The translations under genes and the position numbers were made by a program. Shown here one piece after another: positions 2,715 to 20,735 of a DNA stretch of 26,789 bases; position 1 is the first letter of the stretch, and every line of letters starts with the position of its first letter. The notes below the pieces were generated by a model. It worked only from the letters and a program-made list of their open reading frames with translations, ran no database searches and was not told where the DNA came from. Source of the DNA: a virus (taxonomy: Duplodnaviria; Heunggongvirae; Uroviricota; Caudoviricetes); IMG/VR virus record IMGVR_UViG_2568526722_000004, positions 1 to 26,789 of that record; one strand, 5' to 3'.

Positions 2715-2915
2715 CTAATCTTTCGGATAGATATCCGGTCTTAAGTCAGATTTCGTAATTGCACCTGACGTGCATTGCTCAAGTTTTTTAGCCAGCACAA
2801 AACTGGCTTTTTTATAGCCATTGAAAACCAGCCGTAAGTAGCCAGGTGTTGAGCCAACTTTTCCGGCCAACTCGCCCTGCTGTTCTTTGGTTAAAGAGTC
2901 CCAATACGCTTTCAT
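2715..2915 (-). CDS. Cro/YdaS-like HTH transcriptional regulator
   Basis: 66-aa protein from the internal ATG at 2915 with GGAGGT RBS (the longer 167-aa track ORF has a non-protein-like N-terminal extension); HTH segment ...ELAGKVGSTPGYLRLVFNGYKKASFVLAKKLEQCTSGAITKSDLRPD; divergent from the CI-like gene. Confidence 0.6.
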   Translation of the reverse strand: MKAYWDSLTKEQQGELAGKVGSTPGYLRLVFNGYKKASFVLAKKLEQCTSGAITKSDLRPDIYPKD

Positions 2916-3005: not shown

Positions 3006-3680
3006 ATGAAAACAATCCATGACATCCGGCGGTCTAACGCCAGAAAACTGAGAGATGGTGTTGGCGGGAATTCTTCCTTTGCCACTATGATTGATCGCGA
3101 GCCAACCCAGACCAGCAGGTTTATGGGAGATGGTGCTACTAAAAATATCGGTGACAGCATGGCACGACACATCGAAAAATGTTTCGACCTGCCTGTCGGA
3201 TGGCTCGATCAAGAACACCAGACAACGAACATCACAAAAAAACCTGATGTTTCAATCACTAATAAACAAATCACATTAGTCCCTGTCATATCATGGGTAC
3301 AGGCCGGAGCATGGAAAGAAGTTGGATATTCTGAGGTTGATTTGAGCACAGCAGAAACGTATCCCTGCCCTGTACCCTGTGGGGAAATGACTTATATCTT
3401 GCGGGTGATAGGTGATTCAATGATTGATGAGTACCGCCCGGGAGACATGATTTTTGTCGATCCTGAAGTACCTGCCTGCCACGGTGACGACGTTATTGCA
3501 TTGATGCACGATACAGGCGAAACCACCTTCAAAAGGTTGATAGAAGATGGGACACAGCGTTATCTCAAAGCGTTAAACCCAAACTGGCCTGAGCCTTACA
3601 TTAAGATCAACGGTAATTGCTCTATAATTGGTACAGTGATTTTCTCAGGAAAACCAAGAAGATACAAAATCAAAGCCTAA
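3006..3680 (+). CDS. CI-like phage repressor with LexA/S24 peptidase C-terminal domain
   Basis: 224-aa ORF; C-terminal ...YILRVIGDSMIDEYRPGDMIFVDPEV... has the GDSM serine motif of the S24 (LexA/CI) autopeptidase family; divergent from the Cro-like gene; followed by a terminator. Confidence 0.75.
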   Translation: MKTIHDIRRSNARKLRDGVGGNSSFATMIDREPTQTSRFMGDGATKNIGDSMARHIEKCFDLPVGWLDQEHQTTNITKKPDVSITNKQITLVPVISWVQAGAWKEVGYSEVDLSTAETYPCPVPCGEMTYILRVIGDSMIDEYRPGDMIFVDPEVPACHGDDVIALMHDTGETTFKRLIEDGTQRYLKALNPNWPEPYIKINGNCSIIGTVIFSGKPRRYKIKA

Positions 3681-3719: not shown

Positions 3720-3752
3720 TTGACAATGTACCTTTGAGATACATAATGTACC
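3720..3752 (+). promoter_or_regulatory. Sigma70-like promoter (pL-like) with flanking TGTACC operator half-sites
   Basis: TTGACA (3720-3725), 17-bp spacer, CATAAT (3742-3747); ATGTACC at 3726-3732 and 3746-3752 overlap the promoter elements. Confidence 0.5.
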
Positions 3753-3914
3753 CAAGCGAAACAACGAACAGGCAGGACGCCCACGAAGTAGCCGCCTGGA
3801 GCATATGAAGTCCAGGATGATTCGTTAGCAACAAAAAAGCGCCCTACAGGACGCTTAGCTCTTTAACAATCTGGTCCCCATCAACAAGTAACTGATAACT
3901 TGAGGAGATGTGAA

Positions 3915-4121
3915 ATGCACAAAACAGAACCCAAAATCGTCGCGCCTGGCTACACAGATGAGGAAATTTATGAGTGGATGACAAAGAAGCTGGCAGCTAT
4001 AAACCAGCTTCGTGAAGTGCTGTCTTATCGACAGGAAACAATAGACTCCTTAAAAAAACTGGATCAGGAAATCACGGTTTTATCACAGGATGTTACTTTA
4101 GATATTGTGCAGACAAATTAG
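3915..4121 (+). CDS. Hypothetical small protein
   Basis: 68-aa ORF from the ATG at 3915, preceded by GAGGAG; the track ORF uses an upstream TTG at 3900. Confidence 0.35.
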   Translation: MHKTEPKIVAPGYTDEEIYEWMTKKLAAINQLREVLSYRQETIDSLKKLDQEITVLSQDVTLDIVQTN

Positions 4122-4527
4122 GATCCCATTCATTTTCGTCAAAATCATCAAAGTGATGAATTTGTGATCTCCAGTCTCGATAATCTAAAAATTTCTGGGC
4201 GGTTACGCTTATTTTATCAAGTGTGAGTTCATCCTGAATTGAAAGAAGAAGTTCATCAAATTTCATCTCATTAATCTGTTTTGGCATCCAGTGATGCTTC
4301 ATCAGAATAAGGTGAACCAGAGCCTTTTTCCCATTCAACTGATTATAGGGAGTGCCGAATTTCTTCCGGTGCTCATGTAAGACAAGGTCCAAAAGAGTAA
4401 GTAATGTTGCCCTTGATTCAACTTTGCTTATTTCGACTGATGACACTACCCCACTGATTTCAATGCCCCGATACTTTCCAACATTTTCACAGTGGGATTT
4501 GTACAGCGTATAGATATTACCGGACAT
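4093..4527 (-). CDS. Hypothetical protein (AT-rich moron, opposite strand to the surrounding operon)
   Basis: 144-aa ORF with AAGGA RBS; markedly AT-rich compared with its flanks; convergent with the upstream small gene; preceded by two direct repeats. Confidence 0.5.
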   Translation of the reverse strand: MSGNIYTLYKSHCENVGKYRGIEISGVVSSVEISKVESRATLLTLLDLVLHEHRKKFGTPYNQLNGKKALVHLILMKHHWMPKQINEMKFDELLLSIQDELTLDKISVTAQKFLDYRDWRSQIHHFDDFDENEWDPNLSAQYLK

Positions 4528-4542
4528 TTCTTTTCCTTTTGC

Positions 4543-4590
4543 GTTGTTGGGGATAACCAGATTAACCGAATCCTTGTTGTTGGGGAATAA
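4543..4590. repeat. Two direct repeats GTTGTTGGGGA(A)TAAC upstream of the moron gene
   Basis: GTTGTTGGGGATAAC at 4543-4557 and GTTGTTGGGGAATAAC at 4575-4590, 16-48 bp upstream of the start codon at 4527. Confidence 0.5.
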
Positions 4591-4995
4591 CTAGGTCCAC
4601 CTCGCCTGATGTGGCTAAAAGCAGGCACATAACAGCTAAGTATTTTCAACCAGAGAGAATCCTTAGCGTTGTGGTGAATGCGGCTCAGCGCACGCGGGTT
4701 AAGGTTGAGGCTGACAGTCGACCTTCTGTGGATACCCACCCGCCTGGTGTGCAACCTTCGCCAGGCACCGGGAGGCACCCGGCACCACAACTTTATGCTG
4801 TGTGTAGTCTTGGCGGTACCAGCTTGTACCCTTGCTTCCGGCTGGTACCGTCCTTTTTACAAAACAGAGAAGAGCATCACCGGACGACGGGCTCATAACC
4901 CAATCCATCCGGGCGGCAGTCACCGCAGGTGTTCTTCTCTGTTTTGTGGAGAAACTAACCGACCTTGCAGGGTCGATATGATGAGGAGCAGCAAA

Positions 4996-5358
4996 ATGGC
5001 TAGCGAACGCAGTACTGATGTGCAGGCATTTATCGGGGAGCTGGACGGCGGCGTATTTGAAACCAAAATCGGCGCAGTTCTCAGTGAAGTCGCTTCCGGT
5101 GTGATGAACACGAAAACCAAAGGTAAGGTCTCGCTCAACCTGGAAATCGAACCGTTTGATGAGAACCGAGTGAAAATCAAACACAAACTCTCATATGTTC
5201 GCCCGACTAACCGCGGGAAAATTTCCGAAGAAGACACCACCGAAACGCCGATGTATGTCAATCGCGGTGGTCGCCTGACTATTCTGCAGGAAGACCAGGG
5301 ACAGTTACTGACTCTTGCCGGTGAACCTGACGGAAAACTCCGCGCAGCAGGTCGTTAA
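4996..5358 (+). CDS. Hypothetical prophage protein (yfdP-like position)
   Basis: 120-aa ORF from the ATG at 4996 with AGGAG RBS; the longer track ORF 4678..5358 has an implausible GC-rich, non-protein-like N-terminal part. Confidence 0.5.
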   Translation: MASERSTDVQAFIGELDGGVFETKIGAVLSEVASGVMNTKTKGKVSLNLEIEPFDENRVKIKHKLSYVRPTNRGKISEEDTTETPMYVNRGGRLTILQEDQGQLLTLAGEPDGKLRAAGR

Positions 5359-5423: not shown

Positions 5424-6248
5424 ATGTCTCAGAACTTAGACGCAACCGCAATTAATCAAATCCATGCCCTTATTTCTGCTCAGGGTGTTAATGAAATTAT
5501 CAGTAAGATTGGTGCCGATGCTGTGGCATTGCCTGAGAATTTCCGCATTCATGATCTGGAAAAATTTAATTTAAATCGCTTCCGTTTCCGTGGTGCGCTT
5601 TCCACTGCCAGCATCGATGACTTTACCCGTTATTCTAAAGATCTTGCAGATGAAGGCACCCGCTGCTTTATCGATGCTGATAATATGCGTGCCGTCAGTG
5701 TGCTTAACCTGGGTACTATTGATGAACCAGGTCACGCAGATAACACCGCCACACTCAAACTGAAAAAGACAGCACCGTTCTCTGCTCTGTTGTCTGTTAA
5801 CGGCGAGCGTAACTCCCAGAAGTCACTAGCAGAATGGATTGAAGACTGGGCCGACTATCTTGTGGGCTTTGATGCTAATGGTGACGCTATTCAGGCAACA
5901 AAAGCGGCTGCGGCTGTCCGTAAAATCACGATTGAAGCAAACCAGACCGCTGATTTTGAAGATAATGACTTCAGCGGCAAACGCTCCCTGATGGAGTCTG
6001 TCGAAGCGAAGACCAAAGACATTATGCCAGTGGCATTTGAATTTAAATGCGTTCCGTTTGAAGGTCTGAAAGAACGCCCGTTTAAATTACGCCTCAGTAT
6101 TATCACTGGCGATCGTCCTGTACTGGTTCTGCGCATTATTCAGCTGGAGGCGGTGCAGGAAGAAATGGCTAACGAATTTCGTGATCTGCTTGTTGAGAAA
6201 TTCAAGGACAGCAAAGTAGAAACCTTTATTGGTACTTTCACCGCCTGA
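5424..6248 (+). CDS. yfdQ: Prophage protein, YfdQ-like (274 aa)
   Basis: 274-aa ORF; size and gene order (274/178/120/101 aa) match the yfdQ-yfdR-yfdS-yfdT block of E. coli CPS-53/KplE1 as I recall it; symbol assigned from memory, not verified. Confidence 0.5.
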
Positions 6249-7570: not shown

Positions 7571-7920
7571 TGGAGCCATACAGCCTCACACTCGATGAGG
7601 CCTGTCATTTTCTCAAGATATCCAGACCGACTGCCATTAACTGGATACGCACAGGGCGTCTTCAGGCAACACGCAAAGATCCCACTAAGAATAAATCTCC
7701 TTACCTCACAACACGACAAGCCTGCATTGCGGCTCTTCAGTCTCCGCTGCATACTGTCCAGGTGAGCGCGGGTGATGGCATAACAGAGGAAAGAAAATGT
7801 CACTCTTCCGCAGAGGTGAAATATGGTACGCCAGTTTCACATTGCCGAACGGTAAAAGATTTAAACAGTCTCTTGGAACAAAGGACAAAAGGCAGGCGAC
7901 AGAACTCCATGACAAGCTAA
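7570..7920 (+). CDS. Excisionase-like HTH protein (Xis/AlpA-type)
   Basis: ATG at 7570 with AGGTGA RBS; N-terminal [31 protein letters not shown] is an excisionase-type HTH; sits directly upstream of the integrase; the frame stays open to 7920, overlapping int by 124 nt, so the 3' end is uncertain. Confidence 0.5.
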
Positions 7921-8960
7921 AGGCTGAAGCATGGCGGGTCAGCAAACTTGGTGAAATACCTGATATAACGTTCGAGGAAGCGTGTGTCAGGTGGCTTGAA
8001 GAGAAAGCACATAAAAAATCACTGGACGATGACAAAAGCCGGATCGGATTCTGGCTTCAACATTTCGCAGGAATGCAACTAAGAGACATTACTGAATCAA
8101 AAATTTATTCAGCAATGCAGAAAATGACGAACCGGCGTCATGAGGAAAACTGGAAACTCAGGGCAGAAGCATGCAGAAAAAAAGGGAAACCTGTTCCAGA
8201 ATACACGCCAAAACCAGCGTCCGTTGCAACGAAGGCTACGCATCTTTCATTTATAAAGGCCCTACTAAGAGCCGCAGAGCGTGAATGGAAAATGCTGGAT
8301 AAGGCACCAATTATTAAAGTGCCCCAACCAAAGAATAAACGGATCCGCTGGCTGGAGCCCCATGAAGCACAAAGGCTGATTGATGAATGTCCGGAGCCAT
8401 TAAAGTCTGTTGTTGAATTTGCACTGGCAACAGGCCTAAGACGCTCGAACATCATCAACCTTGAATGGCAACAAATAGATATGCAGCGCCGGGTGGCATG
8501 GATAAACCCGGAAGAGAGTAAATCAAACCGCGCAATTGGCGTTGCGCTGAATGATACTGCATGTCGCGTATTGAAAAAACAAATCGGGAATCATCACCGT
8601 TGGGTATTTGTGTACAAGGAAAGCTGTACCAAACCAGACGGAACGAAAGCGCCAACAGTCAGGAAGATGCGGTATGACGCAAACACAGCCTGGAAAGCGG
8701 CGCTGAGACGGACTGGTATTGATGATTTCAGATTTCACGACTTGAGACACACCTGGGCAAGTTGGCTGGTTCAAGCCGGAGTCCCGTTGTCAGTGTTACA
8801 GGAAATGGGAGGCTGGGAGTCTATCGAAATGGTTCGTCGATATGCTCACCTTGCACCTAATCACCTTACCGAACACGCACGGCAAATAGACTCGATCCTA
8901 AACCCATCGGTCCCAAATTTGTCCCAGTCAAAAAATAAGGAAGGTACTAATGATGTGTAA
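7797..8960 (+). CDS. Tyrosine recombinase, lambdoid phage integrase
   Basis: 387-aa ORF; N-terminus [14 protein letters not shown]... (arm-binding type); C-terminal catalytic region ...[40 protein letters not shown] with the conserved HxxR and Tyr motif; ends 13 nt before a copy of the thrW 3' end. Confidence 0.85.
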
Positions 8961-8990: not shown

Positions 8991-9049
8991 ACAAATCAAA
9001 CCACATAACCAATTGATTTCTATTATATTTTTATGTTTTAGTTTTCAAC

Positions 9050-9070
9050 ATACCCCCAAAAGTACCCCCA
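9050..9070. repeat. 21-bp repeat ATACCCCCAAAAGTACCCCCA (candidate integrase arm-type site), copy 1
   Basis: Exact 21-bp direct repeat of 25211-25231; contains an internal TACCCCCA duplication; lies about 60 bp inside the left att core. Confidence 0.6.
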
Positions 9071-9307
9071 TAAGCGCCTGTATGATTAGACTCCGGGAAA
9101 AACATAAAAGCTATTCATTTAAGAGCTTTATGTCTTCATTCACTTTGTCAATTAAGAAAGATATCCAAACGAATAAAATTTCAATTTATTGAAGGCCATG
9201 TCATGTTTTCTATTTCTACAGTTTAAAAGTTTTATCATAACCTTCTGTTAGAACAGAATTAATTAGCAAAAAAACCCCAAGGGCATGAGGTTTTTTATTT
9301 TCCATTG

Positions 9308-10288
9308 TCATGCTAAAGCTCGAGCTACATTTTCTTTGATCGCAATAGCACAAGGAGTTTTGAACTTTTCTTTGCAACAGTGTAATAGCGTATTAATATT
9401 CAAATCAGTTTCAAGAATATTTTTTAGCTCACTCTTTCTTTCCGAGATTAAGGTTGGTTTATCTTTGCATTGTTTGACTATTAAGGCAGTTTCATTAATA
9501 TTCAATTGCTCTATCAATGATTTTATGACAGGCATGACAACTCTATCAGCTAAAAAATGACCATTGATATATTGATAGGCGTTATCTTCTCTCAATCCTT
9601 TATCATATAACTGCTCATAGAATTTATCAGCATCGTATTCATCTTGAATAAGGTTATCAAGTTTTTCTTCAATAACCGCTTTAGATTGCTGCATACTTTC
9701 AAATACAGCATTTTTGATAACAAATTGGTTCGTTAATCGTGGCACAGAAGGAGCAATCGCTTCATGGAAAACTGAGTCATCAAGTCTAACTTGATGCTGT
9801 TTAAGCAATAAAAATTTCTTCAGCACGGGGTAGATCAACCGTGAATACTCTGTAATGTATGCTGTAAAATCGAATTTAATTTCAGTAGCGATCTTTATTT
9901 GAGAAAGACAATACTCAAGGACTTCATGGTGTAACTCGATGCTCTCTTTTGAATATACAAATGTTTGAAAAATAAACTTGTTACTGCAAATTATCTCTGA
10001 GTCTGTACTGTTTTTAGGGCATAAATAATCAAAATCACTATCCATTGCAAATATGGCATATCGATTTGCTCGGCTCATGAATTTTTTTAATACTGGTTTC
10101 CCTTTTGTTCCTTTATTGGTAGGGTTACAAATATCAAAACGTATATCATTATCTTTATCGTTTAATAAGCCTTCCCAGAAAGAAATGTCTTTTAGACCTT
10201 CAACAAAGACAAAGCCATTGTGTCCAGCCATAATACAATATACCTGAAGATATTCTTCGCTAAAATTAATATCCTCAAACTCAGTCAT
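9308..10288 (-). CDS. ariB: AriB-like DUF4435/Toprim protein (PARIS defense system effector)
   Basis: 326-aa ORF overlapping the upstream ATPase gene by 8 nt; N-terminal Toprim-like features (MAGHNGFVFVEGLKD..., acidic AIFAMDSDFDY); low GC; the pairing with an ABC-type ATPase is the PARIS (AriA/AriB) architecture. Confidence 0.6.
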   Translation of the reverse strand: MTEFEDINFSEEYLQVYCIMAGHNGFVFVEGLKDISFWEGLLNDKDNDIRFDICNPTNKGTKGKPVLKKFMSRANRYAIFAMDSDFDYLCPKNSTDSEIICSNKFIFQTFVYSKESIELHHEVLEYCLSQIKIATEIKFDFTAYITEYSRLIYPVLKKFLLLKQHQVRLDDSVFHEAIAPSVPRLTNQFVIKNAVFESMQQSKAVIEEKLDNLIQDEYDADKFYEQLYDKGLREDNAYQYINGHFLADRVVMPVIKSLIEQLNINETALIVKQCKDKPTLISERKSELKNILETDLNINTLLHCCKEKFKTPCAIAIKENVARALA

Positions 10289-11276
10289 GAGAAGATTCCT
10301 TTGAAATATTTTTTATATCTACGAAAGAATCCATCCAGCCTTTCATTAATATTGCAGGACTATGAGTAACAATAATTAACTGACAATTATCGTTAATTGA
10401 TTTGATGGTGCTTATTAATCTTTCTTGCCACGTAAGGTGCAAGGATATTTCTGGCTCATCCATCAACAAGACAGATTCATCCAATGAAGTATTAGCTGTT
10501 TTAATCAGAATATATAACAACTGACGTTCACCTGATGAAAGAAGATTATACCTAATATCTTCACCAGAATCACTCATCTTAATAGAAATGTTACCATTAC
10601 TAAAAGAAACAACTTTGTTACATTCAGCAAATAAATTATTTATAGCTGATTCCAACTTATCCTTTATGAGAATACCTTTAGACTCACTTACTTTGAAAGT
10701 ATTCTTTAACCTTTCTAATTCACCAGCAATTTCCATATCAAGAATTGTGGTGCGCTCACCATCACTTTTTTTGAATTCATAGATGGAATTGGCACTCATA
10801 TTGATAGTTGATATTAACTCAACATTTATTCGCTTAGTGTTTTTAATATTATCACTTACGCTAACAGTTCCCATCCCGAACTCTTTAATTTCAGTGTCTT
10901 CTTTTTTCGATTCAAGCAACTCAATAAGTTCATTTAACTCCTTTATTTCCTTACCCTTTGATTTACCTTTAATACTGTTTTTCTTAAGGTTATTAAGTAG
11001 GTTTAGAAGCTGGACAGAGTCAATTTCGCGAAAATTAACTTTGTGAGTAATTGTGCCTCCATTGGCCAATGTTATTTGAGCCAACGCAGCATTACTTAAA
11101 CTTTCATTTAATTCTTGTTTTAAGAGGGCAAAAACACTTTGAATTATCGTGCTCTTACCTGAGCCATTTTTACCCACTAAAACATTCACATCTTTTAAAC
11201 TCCAATCAATGTCCTTCCGTTTAAAAAGACCTTTGATTGCTATATTTTTGATTATCGTCGCCACTCTCGTATCCAT
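10281..11276 (-). CDS. ariA: AriA-like ABC/AAA_15-21 ATPase (PARIS defense system sensor)
   Basis: 331-aa ORF; Walker A GKNGSGKST, signature-like LSSGERQLL, Walker B LLMDEPE, H-loop IIVTHS; low GC. Confidence 0.65.
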   Translation of the reverse strand: MDTRVATIIKNIAIKGLFKRKDIDWSLKDVNVLVGKNGSGKSTIIQSVFALLKQELNESLSNAALAQITLANGGTITHKVNFREIDSVQLLNLLNNLKKNSIKGKSKGKEIKELNELIELLESKKEDTEIKEFGMGTVSVSDNIKNTKRINVELISTINMSANSIYEFKKSDGERTTILDMEIAGELERLKNTFKVSESKGILIKDKLESAINNLFAECNKVVSFSNGNISIKMSDSGEDIRYNLLSSGERQLLYILIKTANTSLDESVLLMDEPEISLHLTWQERLISTIKSINDNCQLIIVTHSPAILMKGWMDSFVDIKNISKESSHD

Positions 11277-11653
11277 TATTATGAAAGTTGAAATGATTAT
11301 AACATGCTTAGCGTGCGCTTGGCATCTACCCTACAGTTGTTAGCAATAAACTTTATAACACAATGTAACACATTGAATTTAAACACTTAATATCAAATCC
11401 AACGCTAAACATCACGGAACCTGAAAGACTCTTGGCATTCTAGTTAGTACCTACTACGAAACGTTTTGAAAGGTTAAAGTGGACAGTCCGCATCAACTGT
11501 AACTTAAAATGCTCAGTAACGATGCATCTGCATGATTTGCAAAGTATGACAGAACTTCATTTGATGCTTTCACAAATGCGTGCCTGAAGTTTTCTAAAGC
11601 GGCGCGGTTAACTCTTTCTGGCTCAAAACCTTAATAAATCTGTATATCGCGGG

Positions 11654-11880
11654 TTGACACACTTGACACTTTTTCGGGAAAAACCTTAACAAAACTTAAC
11701 CTCCCCTGGCATTTCTAAGCATGGCAACTTGACACTTTTCGCGATTTTTTCGGCTTTTTGACGTGGTAAATCTGGCGAAAGGCCAGTAATGGCGCGGCTT
11801 ACAGCGAGGTTGACACTTTTTCGCGTTCAGAGTGTAAAGTGTCAACCTGGCAAGCTGCTCAACTTGACACTTTTTGATGT
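11654..11880. repeat. Array of TTGACAC(T)TTTT direct repeats plus one inverted copy
   Basis: GTTGACACACTTGACACTTTTTCGGG (~11654-11680), AACTTGACACTTTTCGCG (~11727), GGTTGACACTTTTTCGCG (~11808), inverted AGTGTAAAGTGTCAACC (~11831), AACTTGACACTTTTTGATG (~11862); immediately 3' of the 175-aa HTH gene. Confidence 0.55.
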
Positions 11881-12407
11881 CATTGATGGTCTGATTTTTC
11901 CCATTCAGCTAGGGCGTTTAGCCCGGCTTCACTCCATGATTCCAGTTCATCGGCATAATCACCTGCAACATAGCAGAGTTCGCAACGCAGCATACGAATT
12001 GCCAGCCTGGCATTACCTCGCAAATTGTATTTTTCAAAGTAATGCTGCCCTTCATCATCCTCAAGGCAGATAGCACCATCATCAAGAAAGTGCACTTCCC
12101 AGCCTAATTCCCCGGCTGCATCCAGCACACGCTGCTGTATGCCCTCGTCCGTTGCTGGCGCAGGAATTTTACCGCCTCTGGCCTTAACTGCTTTCCAGAA
12201 CTCGCCCCACGTCATTTCCAGCGTTCTTTCTGGCCACATTTCAGAAATGGTGTCTTTCCCCTGTGCTGGTGGGCTGTTCCGCTGCTCTGTCGCTTCCACA
12301 TCAATTTTTTTGCCAGACATGATCACTTCGCCTTTCTCGATCCAGTCGTAAACTGTCTGGCGGCTTACGCCTTTGTATTTGGCGTATTCGGCTTTACTCA
12401 TCAACAT
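11880..12407 (-). CDS. HTH-domain protein with terminase-small-subunit (Nu1)-like N-terminus; possible packaging or regulatory role
   Basis: 175-aa protein from the ATG at 12407 (GAGGTGA RBS 5 nt upstream); N-terminal MLMSKAEYAKYKGVSRQTVYDWIEKGEV resembles the winged-HTH of small terminase/Nu1-type proteins; the track's longer 202-aa form is an unlikely N-terminal extension. Confidence 0.5.
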   Translation of the reverse strand: MLMSKAEYAKYKGVSRQTVYDWIEKGEVIMSGKKIDVEATEQRNSPPAQGKDTISEMWPERTLEMTWGEFWKAVKARGGKIPAPATDEGIQQRVLDAAGELGWEVHFLDDGAICLEDDEGQHYFEKYNLRGNARLAIRMLRCELCYVAGDYADELESWSEAGLNALAEWEKSDHQ

Positions 12408-12506
12408 GTAGCTCACCTCATGCATATACGATAAAAAATAATTTAATGCGAAAAGGGAATGCGTTGTGGGTATGGAGGAAAGGGGCAATAACCGCCCCTT
12501 ACTGAT

Positions 12507-12779
12507 TCAGTTGCGCCAGGATGGCTGGCTAAGCGTGGTTTTCATTACATCATTGACGACCTGCTTTACGATTTCTGTGTTGGCAGTCGTGCTTTCAACA
12601 TCAACAAAGCCATAATCGCCAATTTCCACCGTCAGGGATTCCAGTTTCTTCCCCAGTGCATCAGGCAACTCTCCACTGAACCGGTGCCGAAGATTTTCCA
12701 CCAGCAAAGCCCTGAATGCCTCGCTGTTCTCTTTTTTCTGCCATAGCTGGCGTTTATCCACTCTGATATTTAATTTCAC
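12507..12779 (-). CDS. Hypothetical protein (90 aa)
   Basis: GTG start at 12779 overlapping the upstream stop (GTGA) and preceded by GAGGTGAGG; second gene of a three-gene operon. Confidence 0.45.
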   Translation of the reverse strand: MKLNIRVDKRQLWQKKENSEAFRALLVENLRHRFSGELPDALGKKLESLTVEIGDYGFVDVESTTANTEIVKQVVNDVMKTTLSQPSWRN

Positions 12780-12943
12780 AGCCTCACCTCTTTAAGTGCC
12801 TTATCCATCAGTTGCCGGGCAATAACATGAATCGACGGTGCCACACCAAGCACAGATTTCTGACGCTTTTCGGCCTGGATACGTTGCAGGGCTTCGATCT
12901 GCCCCCGGGAAAGTAAAACTGGCTTTACTCCGTGATTTTTCAT
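12776..12943 (-). CDS. Small putative DNA-binding protein (55 aa)
   Basis: ATG at 12943 with AAGGGA RBS; MKNHGVKPVLLSRGQIEALQRIQAEKRQKSVLGVAPSIHVIARQLMDKALKEVRL; palindromic operators lie just upstream; the track ORF 12776..13099 has a junk-like N-terminal extension. Confidence 0.45.
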   Translation of the reverse strand: MKNHGVKPVLLSRGQIEALQRIQAEKRQKSVLGVAPSIHVIARQLMDKALKEVRL

Positions 12944-12962
12944 GATGATCCCTTCTGAATGA

Positions 12963-13019
12963 CAATAATTGCAATTATTGCACAAATTGAAATAATACCA
13001 TCGATAATTGCAATAAATG
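12963..13019. promoter_or_regulatory. Palindromic operator candidates upstream of the 55-aa gene
   Basis: Perfect 18-bp palindrome CAATAATTGCAATTATTG (12963-12980) and related GATAATTGCAATAAATG (13003-13019) in an AT-rich region 20-80 bp upstream of the start at 12943. Confidence 0.5.
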
Positions 13020-13221
13020 AAACAAAAAGCATCAATAAACCAACCTTCGGCACTAAATGCTCTGATTTTTCTGCAAAGGTATGGCAGATGTTGCTGCATG
13101 CAAACATAAAGGAAATAGCAGAAGAAACAGCGGGGAGTGAAAAGGGGAAGTTTTTATAAATACACGATTGTCGCCTCACTGCAGGTTAACAGCCACAAAC
13201 CCCATGATAATAACTTGTTAA

Positions 13222-13545
13222 TTATTTCATCAGATTTTTCATTATTTGCGCGATTGAGTACACAAGCAAAAACTCGGCAGCCGCAAGAGTATAAAAAACA
13301 TAGATTCGCTTAGCCCACCGACGATGAAAGAACTCCTCAGCATGGCCGAATGTTCGAGATACAAGCCATGCACCTACTGCACACAGAGCAGGTGCAATGA
13401 GCACAGTTATAAACCAGATTGTGATGCCCATCCCATGCCTACTGATAATAGCCATTGGTATTGCAAAAATGAATGTTAGAGCAGCATTAGCTAATAGAAT
13501 ATCTTTTAAAGTATTTTCAATTAGTTTTTCTAGATTATCTTTCAT
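13222..13545 (-). CDS. Small integral membrane protein (about 3 TM helices)
   Basis: 107-aa ORF with hydrophobic segments (LLANAALTFIFAIPMAIISR, ITIWFITVLIAPALCAVGAWLV, IYVFYTLAAAEFLLVYSIAQI); AT-rich; directly downstream of the lipoprotein gene. Confidence 0.55.
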   Translation of the reverse strand: MKDNLEKLIENTLKDILLANAALTFIFAIPMAIISRHGMGITIWFITVLIAPALCAVGAWLVSRTFGHAEEFFHRRWAKRIYVFYTLAAAEFLLVYSIAQIMKNLMK

Positions 13546-13570
13546 CTAATCCCCCCCGTTGAACATTAAT

Positions 13571-13595
13571 ATATAAAAGCCCCTTACTAAGGGGC
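13571..13595 (-). terminator. Intergenic stem-loop with U-run between the lipoprotein and membrane-protein genes (terminator or attenuator)
   Basis: On the minus strand GCCCCT-UAGUA-AGGGGC followed by UUUUAUAUAUU; lies in the 64-bp gap between the two genes. Confidence 0.5.
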
Positions 13596-13609
13596 TTTGC
13601 ACGGATTGT

Positions 13610-14752
13610 TTAAAGGGAACTTTTTTTCGCCCCTTCAATTTCTTCCTGACAAATTTCGTCATTTGTAAATGAGTACTGCAGATAGACATATCCCTGAGTG
13701 GAATTGTTCGCTCTGGCCTCAATAGAGATAGTATCGATATTGTTTTTTAATGGTATTTCTTTTGTTCCCTTCCATGTGGCAGATAAGAAGCGTTCTTTTT
13801 TGTTTAGCCCCCTCATCCAGTCCTGAGGATCTTTCCAAATTGAACCAGCCAGCAAAAAGTCTGTAGTATCAGCCTTTCCATACAGAGAACTTAAAGAATT
13901 ACTCAATTCTTCAAACTTGGATTTAAGAGCCAATCCATAGCTATCAGTATCAATATTTTTTCCTAAAGCCCGTATTTGACATAAACCAGCTTTCGGGGAG
14001 ATCAACAAACCATACATTTCAAAATCTGCGTTTTGCTTCGGTAATTTATCAGAAGTATACAGATTCACACTGTCTGGTAGTGGCTTGAGCTTAGCACCGA
14101 TCATATCTTCGATGTTTTTCTGTGTAAGACCGGCTTCTAAGCCAAACGGACCATCCGCTGGCGGGAGTAAAGGAAGTTGCCCTTGGGAATTTTTGGCTGT
14201 TACTTCCGTTTCAGTACTGTTTTTTGCGTCATTATCTTGTACTGATGCCAGCTTAACTTCAGCGAGGCCATACTTGGCTGTGAGGTACTTTTGCTGCAAC
14301 ATTGCCATGGTCTGCTCTTCAGTGGCAACAGTAGATAATTTTAGTACCTTTATCAGACCACCACTATACTGACGAGCATCAGCTTTGGCTTCGTTGATTT
14401 TTGCATCTAAGCTGTCAATTTCAGTTTTAATTGAAGCCGCAAGCTCAGGATCAGGTTTTACTCCAGATACAACAACATCAATTTTGGCACCTGATTCAAT
14501 AGCATTAATACGCTGTTCCAAAAGCGCTTTATTAGTTCCTAATATTTCCAGTCTTGCTGTTGTCAGATTTTTTATCAACCCACCAGAAAACTGCTGGTCA
14601 ACTTCCTTAGCTGCTGATATTTCACCTTCCGTTTGCGACAGTTCAGCTTTAAGAGCCGCTACTTCCTGTTTCTGTTCTGGAGTTAACTCTTCTGGCCCAC
14701 ATCCGGTTAACATTACTATACCGACTAATGTTGCAATTAAAGTTTTATTCAT
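13610..14752 (-). CDS. Lipoprotein with internal tandem repeat, unknown function
   Basis: 380-aa ORF; signal peptide with lipobox (MNKTLIATLVGIVMLTGCG); two related ~55-aa repeats (…QQFSGGLIKNLTTARLEILGT… and …RQYSGGLIKVLKLSTVATEEQ…); AT-rich. Confidence 0.6.
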   Translation of the reverse strand: MNKTLIATLVGIVMLTGCGPEELTPEQKQEVAALKAELSQTEGEISAAKEVDQQFSGGLIKNLTTARLEILGTNKALLEQRINAIESGAKIDVVVSGVKPDPELAASIKTEIDSLDAKINEAKADARQYSGGLIKVLKLSTVATEEQTMAMLQQKYLTAKYGLAEVKLASVQDNDAKNSTETEVTAKNSQGQLPLLPPADGPFGLEAGLTQKNIEDMIGAKLKPLPDSVNLYTSDKLPKQNADFEMYGLLISPKAGLCQIRALGKNIDTDSYGLALKSKFEELSNSLSSLYGKADTTDFLLAGSIWKDPQDWMRGLNKKERFLSATWKGTKEIPLKNNIDTISIEARANNSTQGYVYLQYSFTNDEICQEEIEGAKKSSL

Positions 14753-14929
14753 ATCCCTATTCCAAATGAAAATATTCAGATTAATCTTATCAGGAACCCA
14801 GATGCAATTGAATATTCATCTGCTCAGCAACGTAGTAGATTTCCTCAGAAAGCATCAACAAAAAACCAAGAGAATCCCATCCTCTGTTACTGACTACAAT
14901 TGTTCTTTTTTTGGTATTTCCTGAATGCC

Positions 14930-15175
14930 TCACCATTGAGCTGATGTAATCCCATCCCGGCATGTGCCCGGCTGATGGTTTCGCGCATCTCCCCCGAAAT
15001 TATCCTGCCTTGCTGGTGGGCGTGCTGCCTTGTGGATACATTCCGCGCGACGTTTTGCCGCCTGTTCCCGTGCCTTGTCATCATTCGCCAGCATGATGAC
15101 CTCAGCCCACCGCGCCGCCGCTCTCCGGTACAGACCACGCGCTTCCAGTGCTTCCGCTTTGCTGTCGTGAATCAT
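14930..15175 (-). CDS. PerC-family transcriptional regulator-like protein
   Basis: 81-aa ORF with ATGA overlap to the upstream gene; MIHDSKAEALEARGLYRRAAARWAEVIM... resembles PerC/Pch-type proteins. Confidence 0.5.
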   Translation of the reverse strand: MIHDSKAEALEARGLYRRAAARWAEVIMLANDDKAREQAAKRRAECIHKAARPPARQDNFGGDARNHQPGTCRDGITSAQW

Positions 15176-15684
15176 GCGCCTATTGTCTCCTTTGCTGCCC
15201 GGCGCTGGCGTTTGCGCTTCTCATTCAGCGCCACCAGCCGCGTTTCTGCGTCCTGTTGTTCCTGTGGTGTCACCTCGCCGCACGGCTGGCCTTTCAGGTC
15301 GTAGCGTACCCCACCAGCCATTAAGGCGCGGTAATAGTGCGGACACTGCGCATAAGATGCCAGCGTCGCACGCAATGCCCCTGGCCCGAATGCCAGCCCC
15401 CTGACGGCGAGATCCTGCATCAGGTCGTCGAATATCCCCACCTTAAGCGGCTTCGGTGCTTCCCGGCTGAATAAGTCAGGCCACAACTCAGTGAGGCGGT
15501 TAACGCGCCTGCGGTTTTTGCGCTGGCGTTTGGTCATATGCCGCCACGGTGTCGCCCCTGTGGGCTTTTGCTGCGCTTTCTGGTTACCGGGCATCACTTT
15601 ATGCGCCGATGTGGTTTTATGATCTTACCCAGCAATAGTGGACACGCGGCTAAGTGAGTAAACTCTCAGTCAGAGGTGACTCAC

Positions 15685-15984
15685 ATGACAAAAACAGTAT
15701 CAACCAGTAAAAAACCCCGTAAACAGCATTCGCCTGAATTTCGCAGTGAAGCCCTGAAGCTTGCTGAACGCATCGGTGTTACTGCCGCAGCCCGTGAACT
15801 CAGCCTGTATGAATCACAACTCTACAACTGGCGCAGTAAACAGCAAAATCAGCAGACGTCTTCTGAACGTGAACTGGAGATGTCTACCGAGATTGCACGT
15901 CTCAAACGCCAGCTGGCAGAACGGGATGAAGAGCTGGCTATCCTCCAAAAGGCCGCGACATACTTCGCGAAGCGCCTGAAATGA
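15685..15984 (+). CDS. insE: IS3 transposase OrfA (InsE)
   Basis: 99-aa product [32 protein letters not shown]... with AGGTGA RBS; matches IS3 InsE from memory. Confidence 0.9.
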
Positions 15985-16847
15985 AGTATGTCTTTATTGA
16001 AAAACATCAGGCTGAGTTCAGCATCAAAGCAATGTGCCGCGTGCTCCGGGTGGCCCGCAGCGGCTGGTATACGTGGTGTCAGCGGCGGACAAGGATAAGC
16101 ACGCGTCAGCAGTTCCGCCAACACTGCGACAGCGTTGTCCTCGCGGCTTTTACCCGGTCAAAACAGCGTTACGGTGCCCCACGCCTGACGGATGAACTGC
16201 GTGCTCAGGGTTACCCCTTTAACGTAAAAACCGTGGCGGCAAGCCTGCGCCGTCAGGGACTGAGGGCAAAGGCCTCCCGGAAGTTCAGCCCGGTCAGCTA
16301 CCGCGCACACGGCCTGCCTGTGTCAGAAAATCTGTTGGAGCAGGATTTTTACGCCAGTGGCCCGAACCAGAAGTGGGCAGGAGACATCACGTACTTACGT
16401 ACAGATGAAGGCTGGCTGTATCTGGCAGTGGTCATTGACCTGTGGTCACGTGCCGTTATTGGCTGGTCAATGTCGCCACGCATGACGGCGCAACTGGCCT
16501 GCGATGCCCTGCAGATGGCGCTGTGGCGGCGTAAGAGGCCCCGGAACGTTATCGTTCACACGGACCGTGGAGGCCAGTACTGTTCAGCAGATTATCAGGC
16601 GCAACTGAAGCGGCATAATCTGCGTGGAAGTATGAGCGCAAAAGGTTGCTGCTACGATAATGCCTGCGTGGAAAGCTTCTTTCATTCGCTGAAAGTGGAA
16701 TGTATCCATGGAGAACACTTTATCAGCCGGGAAATAATGCGGGCAACGGTGTTTAATTATATCGAATGTGATTACAATCGGTGGCGGCGGCACAGTTGGT
16801 GTGGCGGCCTCAGTCCGGAACAATTTGAAAACAAGAACCTCGCTTAG
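15981..16847 (+). CDS. insF: IS3 transposase OrfB (InsF), DDE catalytic domain; expressed as OrfAB by -1 frameshift
   Basis: 288-aa ORF overlapping the orfA stop (ATGA); DDE-type integrase core (…HTDRGGQY…, …[11 protein letters not shown]…). Confidence 0.9.
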
Positions 16848-16982
16848 GCCTGTGTCCATATTACGTGGGTAGGATCATTATCCTGCTCCTGCGCCGCCTG
16901 CGTCGTTTTCTGCGGCGTGCCGTAAATGCCTTTCGGTTTTCTGTTAATGGTCAGCTTAGTCATGCTTTGCCCCATCGTTACA

Positions 16983-17316
16983 ACTGTCTACCAACTGTCT
17001 ACCGATATAATTGTTTGATTTATTTAATGTTATTAATACATAACAAAAAAACAATCTGCAAACTGTCTACCAACTCTCTACAGTATTAATACATTGATAA
17101 TTAATGACTTTTACTAAATGGTAGACAGTGTAGATAGTTAAAAGAAAAATTTTAAAAATGAACCCATAACTATCTATTTTTAGATACCCCCGTGGTTTAG
17201 AAATATAAAATAAACTGTCCACCTCTCTACCACATTAAAAATACCTATATAATTCAAAACATTAATTAGTAGATGGTTGGTAGAGGGTTAAGTGTATCTG
17301 TCTACCAACCGTCTAC
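16983..17316. repeat. Iteron-like repeat array in AT-rich DNA downstream of the primase gene (candidate replication origin)
   Basis: CTGTCTACCAACTGTCTACC (16983-17002), CTGTCTACCAACTCTCTAC (17063-17081), inverted GGTAGACAGTGTAGATAG (~17120), CTGTCCACCTCTCTACCAC (~17215), inverted GGTTGGTAGAGGG (~17276), CTGTCTACCAACCGTCTAC (17298-17316). Confidence 0.6.
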
Positions 17317-17344
17317 TTTTAAGTTTCAACTTATAAATTTCGTA

Positions 17345-19150
17345 TCATGTTCTGTCGTTAATGCCTGCCGTTGCTGGTAACCATCCATCAGCATCTTTAT
17401 CTAACAGAACATTTGTGATCGTTCGCCCTTTATCTGGACCTTTAGTGCATTTAGCCCGCTTGTACTCCTTTCCGTACTCAGCCATTGCCCCTGGCATATC
17501 TGTACCAAAGCGTGTCAGTGATACCGGTTTTCCCAGACCATGCGCAGACATATAAGCCAAATAAGCATGATACAGATATCGCCTCGGACTAAATGGCACT
17601 ATTTCTGCATTACCTACTATCATTCCCTCACATTTAACCAACGACATCAGATAACCGCAGAAGTCCACCAGCGAATCACCTTCACGCTTTATCAACAGTG
17701 CTTCTTCTGATTTTTGCTGCTCATAAAGTAGTCTTTTCGCTTCGTCCTGGTCGGCAAATCGTGTAAGCAAATGGCGAATCACTACTGCCAGTTCCCCTTC
17801 TATCTTTTTCGCCAGCATCGGATCGCGTTCGTTCTCTGGTACAACCTCAGAGAAATTAAATATTACTCGTCGACGCGAGATCCCCCCACTACGGTCGCTG
17901 AATGACATGGCATAATTGTTTACTGCCAGCACTACCGCAGGAACGCGCGTGGAATAGGGCGCTTTGTGTTTCGGATCGATAGCCACCTTGTCACCGCCTG
18001 TAATGGCCTTAATCCCAGCACCATCACCTGCGTAGCGGGTCATGTCAGGCATGATAATCAGAGAATATCCCACCACTAACGCTCGTTCCCTCGCGTCTTC
18101 CAGCGCCTTCATGCTCGCCGATACTGTATTGGCCTTACCCGCCAGCATGGTACAAATCTCCGCCATCACACTTTTACCGCTTCCGCCCGGCCCCGTTACC
18201 TCAAGGAATAACTGCCAGTCGTACCGGTTCGCCAGTACCATGAATAATGCCGCCAGTACGCGATCCGCTTTACGAGCATTATCCGCCACCGAACGACGCA
18301 ACCACTTCCAGAAATTCGGCGCATGTGTTGCCAGCGTTTCCCCCTCTTCTGGCGGGCTGAACGGTAATTCACTGGCATTTAACAACCAGTCATTTTTGTT
18401 GTGTTCCCGAAAATTTCCTGTCCTGATATCAAAAACACCGTTACTGAACCCAATAAGATTTCTGTCCGCTCCCCCCATAACAGGTAGACTCAATTTCATT
18501 GTCTCTACGGCAAATTTAATGGCGTTTTGCGAATAACTAATTTCGGCATCAATAAAAATCTTCGCCATAGACCGCTGGAGTTCCTTATCAGATACAGGCT
18601 CCCAAACAATTCCGTTGTAATGGTGAACTACATCAGAATCATCATTTATCGCCAGTGCTCCTCCATAATGTTCAAGTAACACTTCCCCTCTCTGGCTGGC
18701 TCCCATCTGATTTAATGCAGGCTTGGGTAGACCACTATTTTTTGTAGCTAATTTCATCACTGAAACTTCCCCGTGCTCAGCCTGTTCGCGGATCCGTTGC
18801 AGGTAGTCGCGCCAGTTCTCCGGTTCCTGGTCGGTGATACCTTTGTATAATTTCGCCTCCTGTACGCCAGCCAGCGCCAGCTTTTCAGCGATAGTATTGA
18901 TCTGGATTGGCTCTATCTCCCCCGCGATATAGACACGCGCAAAACGGCGTTTCTCGTCAATAATGCGGATATTCGCCAGGTCTGCCAGTTGCTTTGGCCC
19001 CAGGTAAACAGGAGGCACGTTATCGCCGTGTTTTCGTCCTTCACTTTCAATCCAGTGTTGAGCATGGGCGTAAGCATCCATCCCGGCAAAAATGATTACC
19101 TCAGTGAATTTATCCTTCGGCTGATATTTTAGACTCGGTGCGTTTTTCAC
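17345..19150 (-). CDS. Replication primase/helicase-like protein (P4 alpha / D5-type SF3 NTPase family)
   Basis: 601-aa ORF; Walker A in ...LEVTGPGGSGKSVMAE...; last gene of a tightly coupled operon; followed by the iteron array. Confidence 0.7.
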   Translation of the reverse strand: MKNAPSLKYQPKDKFTEVIIFAGMDAYAHAQHWIESEGRKHGDNVPPVYLGPKQLADLANIRIIDEKRRFARVYIAGEIEPIQINTIAEKLALAGVQEAKLYKGITDQEPENWRDYLQRIREQAEHGEVSVMKLATKNSGLPKPALNQMGASQRGEVLLEHYGGALAINDDSDVVHHYNGIVWEPVSDKELQRSMAKIFIDAEISYSQNAIKFAVETMKLSLPVMGGADRNLIGFSNGVFDIRTGNFREHNKNDWLLNASELPFSPPEEGETLATHAPNFWKWLRRSVADNARKADRVLAALFMVLANRYDWQLFLEVTGPGGSGKSVMAEICTMLAGKANTVSASMKALEDARERALVVGYSLIIMPDMTRYAGDGAGIKAITGGDKVAIDPKHKAPYSTRVPAVVLAVNNYAMSFSDRSGGISRRRVIFNFSEVVPENERDPMLAKKIEGELAVVIRHLLTRFADQDEAKRLLYEQQKSEEALLIKREGDSLVDFCGYLMSLVKCEGMIVGNAEIVPFSPRRYLYHAYLAYMSAHGLGKPVSLTRFGTDMPGAMAEYGKEYKRAKCTKGPDKGRTITNVLLDKDADGWLPATAGINDRT

Positions 19151-19437
19151 TTCTTACCTCCCGCAACCAACATTGCCCGGATTTTTTTAATATTCGTGGC
19201 TGCACGTCTCGCCACTGCCTGTTGTTTGTTTTCCACCACAATAAAATCACGATCAAACTGACGGCGCGGCATTACGCAGTCATATTCGTAAGCCTCACGG
19301 CGGTAGGTGATATTGCCTGGCGTAACGTGACGAATAACCACCCGTCCCCCGCGTCTGGTGTCCCGGAAAATATCACCGGGGCGGATTTCAGGCCGAGAGA
19401 GGCCGCTGGCAGTAAAGCCAGAATTTTTCTTTTTCAT
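19147..19437 (-). CDS. Hypothetical protein (replication operon)
   Basis: 96-aa ORF whose stop overlaps the primase start (ATGA). Confidence 0.45.
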   Translation of the reverse strand: MKKKNSGFTASGLSRPEIRPGDIFRDTRRGGRVVIRHVTPGNITYRREAYEYDCVMPRRQFDRDFIVVENKQQAVARRAATNIKKIRAMLVAGGKK

Positions 19438-19441
19438 GGTT

Positions 19442-19642
19442 TTATTTTCCTGTCAGCAGTTCCGGTTTTATTTCCGCACGAATACAAAGTTCAGAAAAAA
19501 ATTCAGGAGAACCAACAATCTCATTACTTTTCAGTCGGCATTGTGATTTCACTTTCCCTTTATCCAGGTAAACCAGTACGCGTCCGGTGAAATCATCTGG
19601 CACATTAAGCACTACGGGTACATGCGCTTCATGATTATGCAT
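19442..19642 (-). CDS. Hypothetical protein (replication operon)
   Basis: 66-aa ORF; start overlaps the upstream stop by 8 nt. Confidence 0.4.
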   Translation of the reverse strand: MHNHEAHVPVVLNVPDDFTGRVLVYLDKGKVKSQCRLKSNEIVGSPEFFSELCIRAEIKPELLTGK

Positions 19643-19868
19643 GGCTTACATCCTCCGTGAATTTTCTTCTGTAACGCGTCTCTGCCACATATTCCGCATA
19701 GTCCGACGCAATACTAAGAATCATTTCACCCTCTGACTTGTAGCCACTGGTATTGATAAGAAAATATGCAGCTTTCATCATGTCAGCAACGCTCAACAAT
19801 GCGCCCGCTGCATCTTCCGGTGCGCCATCAAATTCCCGTTTCAGGGAATTAAAACGATCATCACGCAT
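19635..19868 (-). CDS. Hypothetical protein (replication operon)
   Basis: 77-aa ORF; start overlaps the upstream stop by 8 nt. Confidence 0.4.
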   Translation of the reverse strand: MRDDRFNSLKREFDGAPEDAAGALLSVADMMKAAYFLINTSGYKSEGEMILSIASDYAEYVAETRYRRKFTEDVSHA

Positions 19869-20226
19869 GTTTACCCCCCTGAATGACCTGATAACCGCAA
19901 CTGGTCAGCAACTCGATAAATTCCGGCAGTGTGCCGAAACAGCAATCATCACGCAGCCGTTCGCGGGATACTTCAACGCCGTTTTCGTAGTGACTCACCA
20001 TACGCCCGGTAAAATGCAGATCATCATCGTGATGGCTCGTTGACGGCTTAATCAGTCGCGCACGTTCCGCCAGTTCCAGCAATGCTTCAACGCTTCCGGC
20101 AATTGCACCATCCGGCAGGTGGTAATTACGCACTATGCGCCCGTTCTCCACATTGACCAGCAACTGCCCGGTAAATTTCTCGTCAAACTGAATGCTGTTA
20201 AGGTCAGAAATTGACAGGTTATGCAT
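19861..20226 (-). CDS. Hypothetical protein (replication operon)
   Basis: 121-aa protein from the second ATG (20226), which has a perfect AGGAGG RBS 6 nt upstream; the track start at 20244 is less likely. Confidence 0.45.
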   Translation of the reverse strand: MHNLSISDLNSIQFDEKFTGQLLVNVENGRIVRNYHLPDGAIAGSVEALLELAERARLIKPSTSHHDDDLHFTGRMVSHYENGVEVSRERLRDDCCFGTLPEFIELLTSCGYQVIQGGKHA

Positions 20227-20443
20227 GGTGCACCTCCTGCACATCAGCCATGATAATTTTTCCGGCCTTATCCAGTGCCTGATCGGCTTTTAGCTGCACA
20301 AATGCTAAATAATGGGAGATGCATTCTGATTCTCTGGCTGCGTGTTTATGCGCCACACCAGCGATAGCAGAAATCTCAATAAGTGAATCCATCAGCGTTT
20401 TGATAGCGTCTACCGCTGCATCAGGCCATGTTGCATTACACAT
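20219..20443 (-). CDS. Hypothetical protein (replication operon)
   Basis: 74-aa ORF; start overlaps the upstream stop by 8 nt. Confidence 0.4.
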   Translation of the reverse strand: MCNATWPDAAVDAIKTLMDSLIEISAIAGVAHKHAARESECISHYLAFVQLKADQALDKAGKIIMADVQEVHHA

Positions 20444-20639: not shown

Positions 20640-20735
20640 AGCTACCTCGATACTCTTGCTATCGTTGGTGGTTAGACGCCCTGCATGTGTGCCACCACTG
20701 CGGGGCGTTGTCGTTTCTGCACCTTGCATCAACAA

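Follow-up and report, generated by a model that had tools for sequence, protein, structure and literature searches.

An antisense ECs1072-family gene with a YdfC-like partner behind a PsieB-type promoter/leader cassette in an Escherichia coli prophage

An ECs1072-family gene and its convergent partner

We examined a stretch of viral DNA of 26,789 nucleotides (nt), positions 1 to 26,789 of IMG/VR record IMGVR_UViG_2568526722_000004, which is called the window below. Its left part is an SfIV/e14-like temperate prophage of Escherichia coli, and our subject is a small gene of this prophage, an open reading frame (ORF) of 144 amino acids (aa) belonging to the ECs1072 family, together with the two direct repeats upstream of it and the YdfC-like gene that converges on it (Table 1). 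The ORF (4093-4527, minus strand) is oriented against the surrounding plus-strand operon exactly as the first-pass annotation had described; its neighbours (cI, the 68-aa gene, yfdP and yfdQ) are all encoded on the plus strand. About 1.4 kb around it match many E. coli chromosomes with 99.5-100% identity, and Shigella phage SfIV encodes a protein that is 100% identical to that of the ORF.

The placement in the early-left operon was likewise confirmed. A 19-bp operator, ATGTACC-N7-TACAT, is present in three copies between cro and cI (2921-2989) and in two copies over the promoter past cI (3726-3764); the operator search returned eight matches against 1.7 expected, all of them within these two regions. 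Since the promoter at 3720-3747 is overlapped by operators of the cro-cI type, it is the cI-repressed pL, whose transcription unit contains the ORF in antisense orientation. Prophage e14 of E. coli K-12 (locus L333, ~1185-1225) and SfV share this pL and operator sequence. The ORF was also said to be more AT-rich than its neighbours, and it has the composition of a moron: its G+C content (GC) is 37.9% (38% at third codon positions, GC3) versus 47.7% for the prophage part. The corresponding values are 40.6% for the 68-aa partner gene, 44.9-51.2% for cI, yfdP and yfdQ, and 54.6% for the STnc100-like region.

Table 1. Features of the early-left locus and its surroundings in the window
Feature	Position	Strand	Remarks
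cro-like gene	2715-2915	-	
cI-type repressor (Peptidase_S24; YmfK/CohE-like)	3006-3680	+	
pL promoter, TTGACA-16-CATAAT	3720-3747	+	near-consensus, just past the cI terminator
OL operators	3726-3744 and 3746-3764		overlap the pL promoter
Terminator-like hairpin with T-run (second)	3837-3856	-	consensus scan only
Third, inverted C-rich box	3875-3885	+	TCCCCATCAAC; 30 nt before the partner ATG
YdfC-like partner gene, 68 aa	3915-4121	+	convergent with the ECs1072-family gene, 3' overlap 29 nt
Terminator-like hairpin	3986-4011	-	past the ECs1072 stop, inside the partner gene (antisense); consensus scan only
ECs1072-family gene, 144 aa	4093-4527	-	ATG start; product soluble, all-helical
GC-rich non-coding stretch	between ORF 4093-4527 and yfdP		
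PsieB-type promoter/leader cassette (conserved)	4528-4645	-	~110 nt upstream of the ECs1072-family gene
Repeat/box 2	4543-4557		GTTGTTGGGGATAAC; gene strand (-) GTTATCCCCAACAAC; matches the box at the mapped P22 sieB +1
Repeat/box 1	4576-4591		GTTGTTGGGGAATAAC; gene strand (-) GTTATTCCCCAACAAC; matches the -35-side box of P22 PsieB
Most conserved 5' core, two possible hairpins	4597-4626	-	GCCTGCTTTTAGCCACATCAGGCGAGGTGG; common to all leader variants
STnc100-like structured RNA	4638-4861	+	immediately pL-downstream of the cassette
yfdP	4996-5358	+	
yfdQ	5424-6248	+	further early genes after
Prophage integrase	7797-8960		separate P4-like element beyond

The family of the ORF, which the first-pass annotation had been unable to name, could be assigned. 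The protein matches the NCBIfam model NF033230 ('ECs1072 family phage-associated protein') with 157.8 bits (E 1.7e-46; cut-off 70 bits), the alignment spanning residues 4-144 of the protein and positions 2-142 of the 142 in the model. It also matches the profile phrog_5286 over its full length (E 1.5e-90), as do 46/46 aligned relatives. The NF033230 family comprises single-domain proteins of ~142-155 aa; the 144-aa product fits this description, and all relatives examined lie in prophage or phage contexts. An exhaustive profile search collected 71 clusters at 50% identity across Enterobacterales, with lengths of about 143-157 aa except for fragments. AlphaFold2 gave a confident all-helical model, with a predicted local distance difference test score (pLDDT) of 94 and a predicted template modelling score (pTM) of 0.88. 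His72 and Trp134 are invariant in the family, and Leu46, Arg54, Gly66, Ala69 and Trp80 nearly so. ECs1072 itself is a regulated probe in an array study of O157 Sakai.

Compared with the Escherichia albertii allele, the ratio of nonsynonymous to synonymous substitution rates (dN/dS) is 0.225 at a dS of 0.76, amid flanking DNA that is 91-97.5% identical. The protein is therefore under purifying selection, and the allele has been swapped by recombination, with breakpoints at the ORF borders. At the E. albertii locus (L010), the allele is 28% diverged and the flanks are nearly identical. The notion that the ORF is spurious and the region non-coding could appeal to its AT-richness and to the GenBank records of ST64B and KPP5665-2, where the homologue is unannotated. 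It is effectively excluded by the match to a curated hidden Markov model, the length conserved in 71 clusters, the dN/dS value and the pLDDT of 94, and because of these the ORF is taken as a genuine gene of the ECs1072 family.

Searches for a biochemical function returned little. No catalytic motif is recognisable in the protein, no relative was found in the PDB or BFVD, and there was no match to a DNA-binding fold or helix-turn-helix (HTH), nor to a toxin family, fold or motif. Similarity to HD, HD-GYP, HDOD or HEPN domains was insignificant, the motifs that define them (H..HD..D or Rx4-6H) being absent, and these candidates were dropped.

In prophages of Yersinia, Pectobacterium and E. albertii and in metagenomic prophages, the ECs1072-family gene adjoins the repressor and is antisense to the early-left genes. 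ST64B and Klebsiella phage KPP5665-2 carry an unannotated homologue in the interval from Q to the holin gene, again on the strand opposite to the surrounding operon. The family ORF is missing from the ST64B record AY055382 (L003, 3281-3715) and from the KPP5665-2 record (L004, 3318-3791). A viral scan with a distant family member as query returned no matches, and a genome scan yielded only three loci.

The gene is not a lone moron. The partner at 3915-4121 belongs to phrog_1744 (E 7.8e-35) and is 40% identical over 97% of its length to genes annotated ydfC or YdfC family. Partner-type genes converge on the ECs1072-family gene and overlap it by 29-194 nt in 8/10 loci; they have an N-terminal 'EPxxxxPGxxxEELxxW' motif and fall in phrog_1744 or phrog_3501. 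Among the matches listed, the partner is present in 68/71 ECs1072 loci versus 16/140 loci with other cargo, counts in which many loci are near-identical; in the more diverse lineage alone they are 20/21 versus 16/79. Judged from this conservation, the ECs1072-family gene and the YdfC-like gene form a convergent two-gene cassette. Of the earlier proposal of a moron, the opposite-strand, AT-rich insert with a predicted promoter of its own stands, its upstream cassette being homologous to P22 PsieB (see below), while the gene makes up only half of the convergent pair. In Qin-type phages, ydfC belongs to the dicB (early-left) operon as one of its ordinary genes. In the E. albertii locus (L010, 1070-1312), an extra T in a poly-T tract frameshifts the C-terminus of the partner.

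Such tight linkage might also be expected of an addiction or toxin-antidote pair, in which the two proteins would stabilise the prophage or trigger abortive death when out of balance. Both genes are expressed in ST64B lysogens, a small acidic partner (isoelectric point, pI, 4.8) faces a near-neutral ECs1072 protein (pI 6.4), and SieB/Esc offers a precedent for an antidote encoded with an exclusion protein (PMC12197685). However, the two genes are convergent and not co-transcribed as those of type II toxin-antitoxin systems, the ECs1072 protein has no toxin fold or motif (its HEPN and HD matches being insignificant), two ECs1072 loci (L009 and L017) are without a partner, and YdfC-like genes occur without ECs1072. 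We therefore consider this explanation unlikely.

A PsieB-type cassette in front of exchangeable cargo

The two repeats of 15-16 bp reported upstream of the gene are present. The 11-mer repeat core (at most one mismatch) occurs three times in the window versus 0.38 expected, and 2/100 shuffles reach three. The E. albertii locus has both repeats, as do a locus with a 56%-identical homologue and at least 120 viral contigs; it is because of this conservation across loci, rather than because of the count within the window, that we regard them as exceeding chance. Their attachment to this particular gene did not hold up. They are boxes of a generic promoter/leader cassette common to many unrelated cargo genes.

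This cassette was recognised in an alignment of seven sequences (alignment A8). They have in common the 5' core GCCTG..CCAC(N)TCAGGC..GGTGG and, past it, two C-rich boxes with a spacing of 33-34 bp; the box sequence is ACCCCTACAG in P22, Rac and Yersinia, and that of the window is CCCCAACAAC. The cassette is located upstream of sieB in phage P22 and in the Rac prophage of E. coli K-12, of the annotated sieB of Hafnia phage Pocitis76, of a gene with a Pfam SieB match in a Yersinia prophage, of ymfI in the K-12 prophage e14, and of an unannotated ORF of 81 aa in SfV. In the P22 record, the sieB promoter is annotated at 29690-29720 and the sieB RNA start at 29727; box 1 of P22 falls inside the annotated promoter, on its -35 side, and box 2 starts at +1. 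Transferred to the window, this mapping predicts a -10-like TTAATCT at 4565-4559, a transcription start at about 4554-4552 and a 5' untranslated region of about 25 nt.

Several other roles for the repeats were considered. Type III toxin-antitoxin RNA repeats, retron msr/msd and a put-like antiterminator RNA were dropped, as the region aligns with the promoter of P22 sieB. Sites for CsrA (ACAAGGAU) or Hfq (ARN) were rejected because repeat 1 lies upstream of the P22-mapped +1 and so outside the mRNA; a CsrA/Hfq site at box 2 only is a weak possibility. The geometry is unsuitable for CII-type activator sites straddling the -35. In one leader variant, that of the Yersinia/Pectobacterium lineage (leader B), an extended -10 (TGGTATCTT) in the 5' core is an attractive candidate which fits leader B and SfV, although the P22 mapping places the start further downstream. 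The Rac core carries a compensatory GCCCGG..CCGGGC; in the covariation test of the core hairpins, variation was too low to tell strand or structure. Before the partner gene, a P22-type box (3842-3849, plus strand, CCCTACAG) and a window-type box (3875-3885, plus strand, CCCCATCAAC) lie 34 nt apart, and there are hints here of a second sieB-type promoter for the partner, the alignment being ambiguous.

To see what follows the cassette elsewhere, two leader motifs were scanned in IMG/VR: i) leader B and ii) the window-type motif, which includes repeat 1. As for i), 110 sites were found, and an ECs1072-family gene follows at 22 of them; the others precede 17 further clusters of small proteins of 62-163 aa, which makes 18 cargo clusters in total. 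As for ii), the motif was detected in at least 120 contigs, and among the matches listed 49/113 downstream ORFs are ECs1072 genes, the remaining cargo belonging (again among the matches listed) to at least ten unrelated families, including coiled-coil and zinc-ribbon proteins, small membrane proteins and an LprI-like secreted protein. Both repeats are kept at nearly all window-type sites regardless of cargo, and the sequences begin to differ a few bases ahead of the start codon. In viral contigs, the cassette stands in front of more than 25 small cargo genes (62-200 aa) that are unrelated to one another. They encode single small proteins, mostly without a known domain, and what is conserved beside them is a promoter/leader that directly adjoins the start codon. 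Of 5426 complete E. coli genomes, 1095 (~20%) carry the 105-nt leader and 416-422 the ORF.

Because the same cassette precedes many unrelated small genes in other phages, the site behind it is a cargo-swapping slot, in which conserved flanks frame highly variable cargo and recombination takes place at the borders. Among the cargo tested, which was only some of it, none matched a known defence family. The membrane cargo proteins of 150-189 aa behind the window-type leader were considered as SieB, and Pfam gave no confirmation; YmfI and YmfJ of e14 are not homologous to ECs1072 or its partner.

Some cassettes are arranged in tandem, a leader and its cargo being succeeded by a second leader and cargo: in one contig (L171) two sites lie 556 nt apart, and another array occupies 4930-6321 of L005. 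An ECs1072-like gene and then sieB in a Yersinia prophage exemplify such an array. Public records also omit slot cargo, such as the SfV ORF of ~81 aa (L330, 2089-2334). E. coli K-12 has the same architecture twice, in e14 (L333, 400-1085) and in Rac (L334, 2406-3312). The order in e14 is ymfK (cI), ymfJ and antisense ymfI behind the cassette, and that in Rac is racR, ydaG/ydaF, antisense sieB behind the cassette, the KilS small RNA (sRNA) and kilR. In Qin, the DicF sRNA comes after ydfC; an sRNA or tRNA gene is always located just pL-downstream of the cargo slot.

Expression and a probable function in the lysogen

Expression evidence comes from the family member of ST64B, which corresponds to STMMW_20121 of Salmonella Typhimurium D23580. 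The length of STMMW_20121 (435 nt), its position 161 nt past the holin gene and its overlap of 71 nt with the next gene agree exactly with the ST64B locus, and its cluster-mates at 90% identity are named ECs1072 family. According to Owen et al. (PMC7067206), STMMW_20121 is transcribed from its own promoter in lysogeny while the neighbouring lytic genes are silent. In their table it reaches ~60-270 transcripts per million (TPM) in all conditions but one, and the holin and lysozyme genes 0.3-41 TPM (PMC7067206). ST64B lysogens likewise express the partner, STMMW_20131 (PMC7067206). In K-12, ExcludonFinder (PMC12288877) lists ymfI-ymfJ and sieB-ydaF as convergent overlapping transcripts, and in P22 the 105-nt sas RNA acts antisense to the sieB leader (PMC12197685).

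These data bear on the idea that the protein serves counter-defence or host takeover and is used when the phage infects or is induced, not in the lysogen. The early-region location would suit it, and small (62-200 aa), diverse cargo behind a conserved leader resembles anti-defence loci. Yet early transcription opposes a gene in antisense orientation, lysogens express the homologue under nearly all conditions with the lytic genes silent, and SieB, the sole characterised cargo of the cassette, has a lysogen function. This possibility thus appears improbable, even more so than an addiction pair.

We propose instead that the ECs1072-family gene is transcribed in the lysogen from a sieB-type promoter and, with its YdfC-like partner, serves the lysogen, likely in exclusion or abortive defence, and that it is shut off by read-through from pL; we put the probability of this reading at roughly 0.55. 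According to this model, the sieB-type promoter would drive the ECs1072-family gene of this prophage in the lysogen. Once induction or infection activates pL, transcription reading through from it would meet the cassette head-on and provide an antisense RNA against the leader, in the manner of sas and P22 sieB. The antisense RNA would then turn the cargo off and allow the phage's own lytic growth to escape. The ECs1072 protein, probably with the YdfC-like partner, would serve the lysogen, and its likeliest role would be superinfection exclusion or abortive-infection-type defence, because that is what SieB, the only characterised cargo of the slot, does. Exclusion or abortive defence is favoured by the SieB association and the slot only, as the protein itself points to no mechanism.

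The closest comparison is P22 sieB/esc, and likewise sieB of Rac. The genomic slot is the same: it comes shortly after the repressor in the direction of pL transcription, and the gene in it runs against the early-left operon and converges on the pL-proximal gene. The upstream cassette of P22 sieB is homologous, with the GCCTG..GGTGG core and the two C-rich boxes 33-34 bp apart, and expression in the lysogen is alike, as shown for the ECs1072 homologue. On the other hand, SieB is an unrelated membrane protein while the ECs1072 protein is soluble, a second, internal product like Esc is not evident in the ECs1072-family gene, and the latter has a separate convergent partner gene. The antisense RNA, known for P22 as sas, is proposed for ECs1072 by analogy. 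STMMW_20121 of ST64B has the same length, single-domain build, antisense placement and convergent partner as the gene of the window; it is ~32% identical to the window allele and occupies the Q-holin slot behind a different leader, whereas the gene of the window occupies the cI-pL slot. Lambda rexAB and bstA of BTP1 resemble the ECs1072-family gene as accessory genes beside the repressor which are of atypical composition, expressed from the prophage and patchily distributed. They differ from it in being co-oriented with the repressor, whereas the ECs1072-family gene runs against pL and has a promoter cassette of its own, and they bear no sequence or fold similarity to it.

A number of observations weigh against the proposed function. 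The protein has no Pfam match (E <= 0.1), and neither the gene nor its partner matched any family of PADLOC-DB v2 at E <= 1. Kinship with SieB found no support, since there is no PF14163 match, hhalign of P22 SieB with the family profile gave a probability of 0.4%, and a soluble protein stands against a membrane-bound one. The gene is under purifying selection and shows no sign of an arms race. As for expression, no site passed the sigma-70 consensus scan of the minus strand, in which the -10-like hexamer is weak, and we infer the promoter in the window solely from homology. Moreover, the expression data were obtained for a homologue that is ~32% identical and located in the other (Q-holin) slot, and expression of the partner in ST64B lysogens fits poorly with a partner transcribed from pL only.

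The arrangement might instead be regulatory. As an 'excludon', the convergent pair could modulate early-left transcription, the STnc100-like RNA and yfdP genes, or the choice between lysis and lysogeny, with the protein acting as a regulator. Overlap of its 3' end with that of the pL-proximal gene is a conserved trait (29-194 nt), ymfI-ymfJ is listed as an excludon (PMC12288877), and Owen et al. (PMC7067206) allow for an 'accessory or regulatory function'. The slot, too, always adjoins the repressor and lies just upstream of an sRNA, which is STnc100 in the window and KPP5665-2 and KilS in Rac, with a tRNA in one locus (L016). However, diverse and unrelated cargo would not be expected if the slot held a core regulator, members of the family are found in the Q-holin interval as well, and a match to a DNA-binding fold or HTH is absent. 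A regulatory role is therefore doubtful, if less so than the other alternatives, and we retain a function for the lysogen as the preferred reading.

Neighbouring elements and wider meaning

The STnc100-like RNA next to the cassette scored 43.4 bits against RF02076 (E 9.4e-8), its gathering score being 47. The region folds with a z of -5.8 on the plus strand versus -2.95 on the minus strand, and a hairpin with a 25-bp stem (4859-4947) follows it before yfdP. It is annotated as a 'frameshifted hypothetical protein' by the Prokaryotic Genome Annotation Pipeline (PGAP) and as part of a 226-aa fusion ORF in SfIV; non-coding RNA is the more likely identity, rather than a protein-coding region. A bona fide STnc100 (108 bits) lies at the same relative position in KPP5665-2 (L004, 3028-3223).

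Beyond the integrase of the SfIV-like prophage (7797-8960), a second element follows in tandem. The segment from ~9000 to 25421 looks like a P4-like satellite or island beside a tRNA-Thr(CGU) gene (25349-25421, minus strand). It carries an integrase (23965-25179), an int-alpA RNA (23853-23920), a D5/primase-like gene (17345-19150), a gene for an AntA-domain protein (21736-22536) and an IS3-family transposase gene (15981-16847). Just past the prophage integrase, in a stretch of 30-33% GC, a PARIS-type defence pair is encoded on the minus strand (9308-11276), consisting of an AriA-like ATPase (10281-11276; PADLOC AriA, E 2.6e-43) and an AriB-like DUF4435 protein (9308-10288; AriB, E 3.6e-22).

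Already known from earlier records are the family name, the promoter of P22 sieB and the expression of STMMW_20121 in lysogens. In the searchable literature, we found no description of ECs1072 in the sieB cassette or of a cassette common to dozens of unrelated cargo genes including K-12 ymfI, nor of the specific convergent pair of ECs1072 and YdfC-like genes or of a fold without a solved relative. A more far-reaching reading, which we offer as a tentative possibility, is that ECs1072 and the YdfC-like protein make up a new two-gene exclusion or abortive system with a new fold, and that the cassette marks a cargo-swapping hotspot of Enterobacterales whose cargo, ymfI included, would be lysogen-protective and shut off from pL in a sas-like manner.

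With a confident model and no structural relative, the ECs1072 protein is a worthwhile structural and functional target. The proposed reading also suggests testable roles for K-12 'y-genes' (ymfI/ymfJ and the ydfC family) and for STMMW_20121 of ST64B, the last of which was flagged by transcriptomics and left unexplained. If it is true, the cassette could serve as a handle for searches, each gene behind it in enterobacterial prophages being a candidate lysogen-expressed protective gene. The sieB/sas logic of P22, by which the early transcript of a phage silences its exclusion gene, would then apply to an entire class of exchangeable cargo and not to a single gene.

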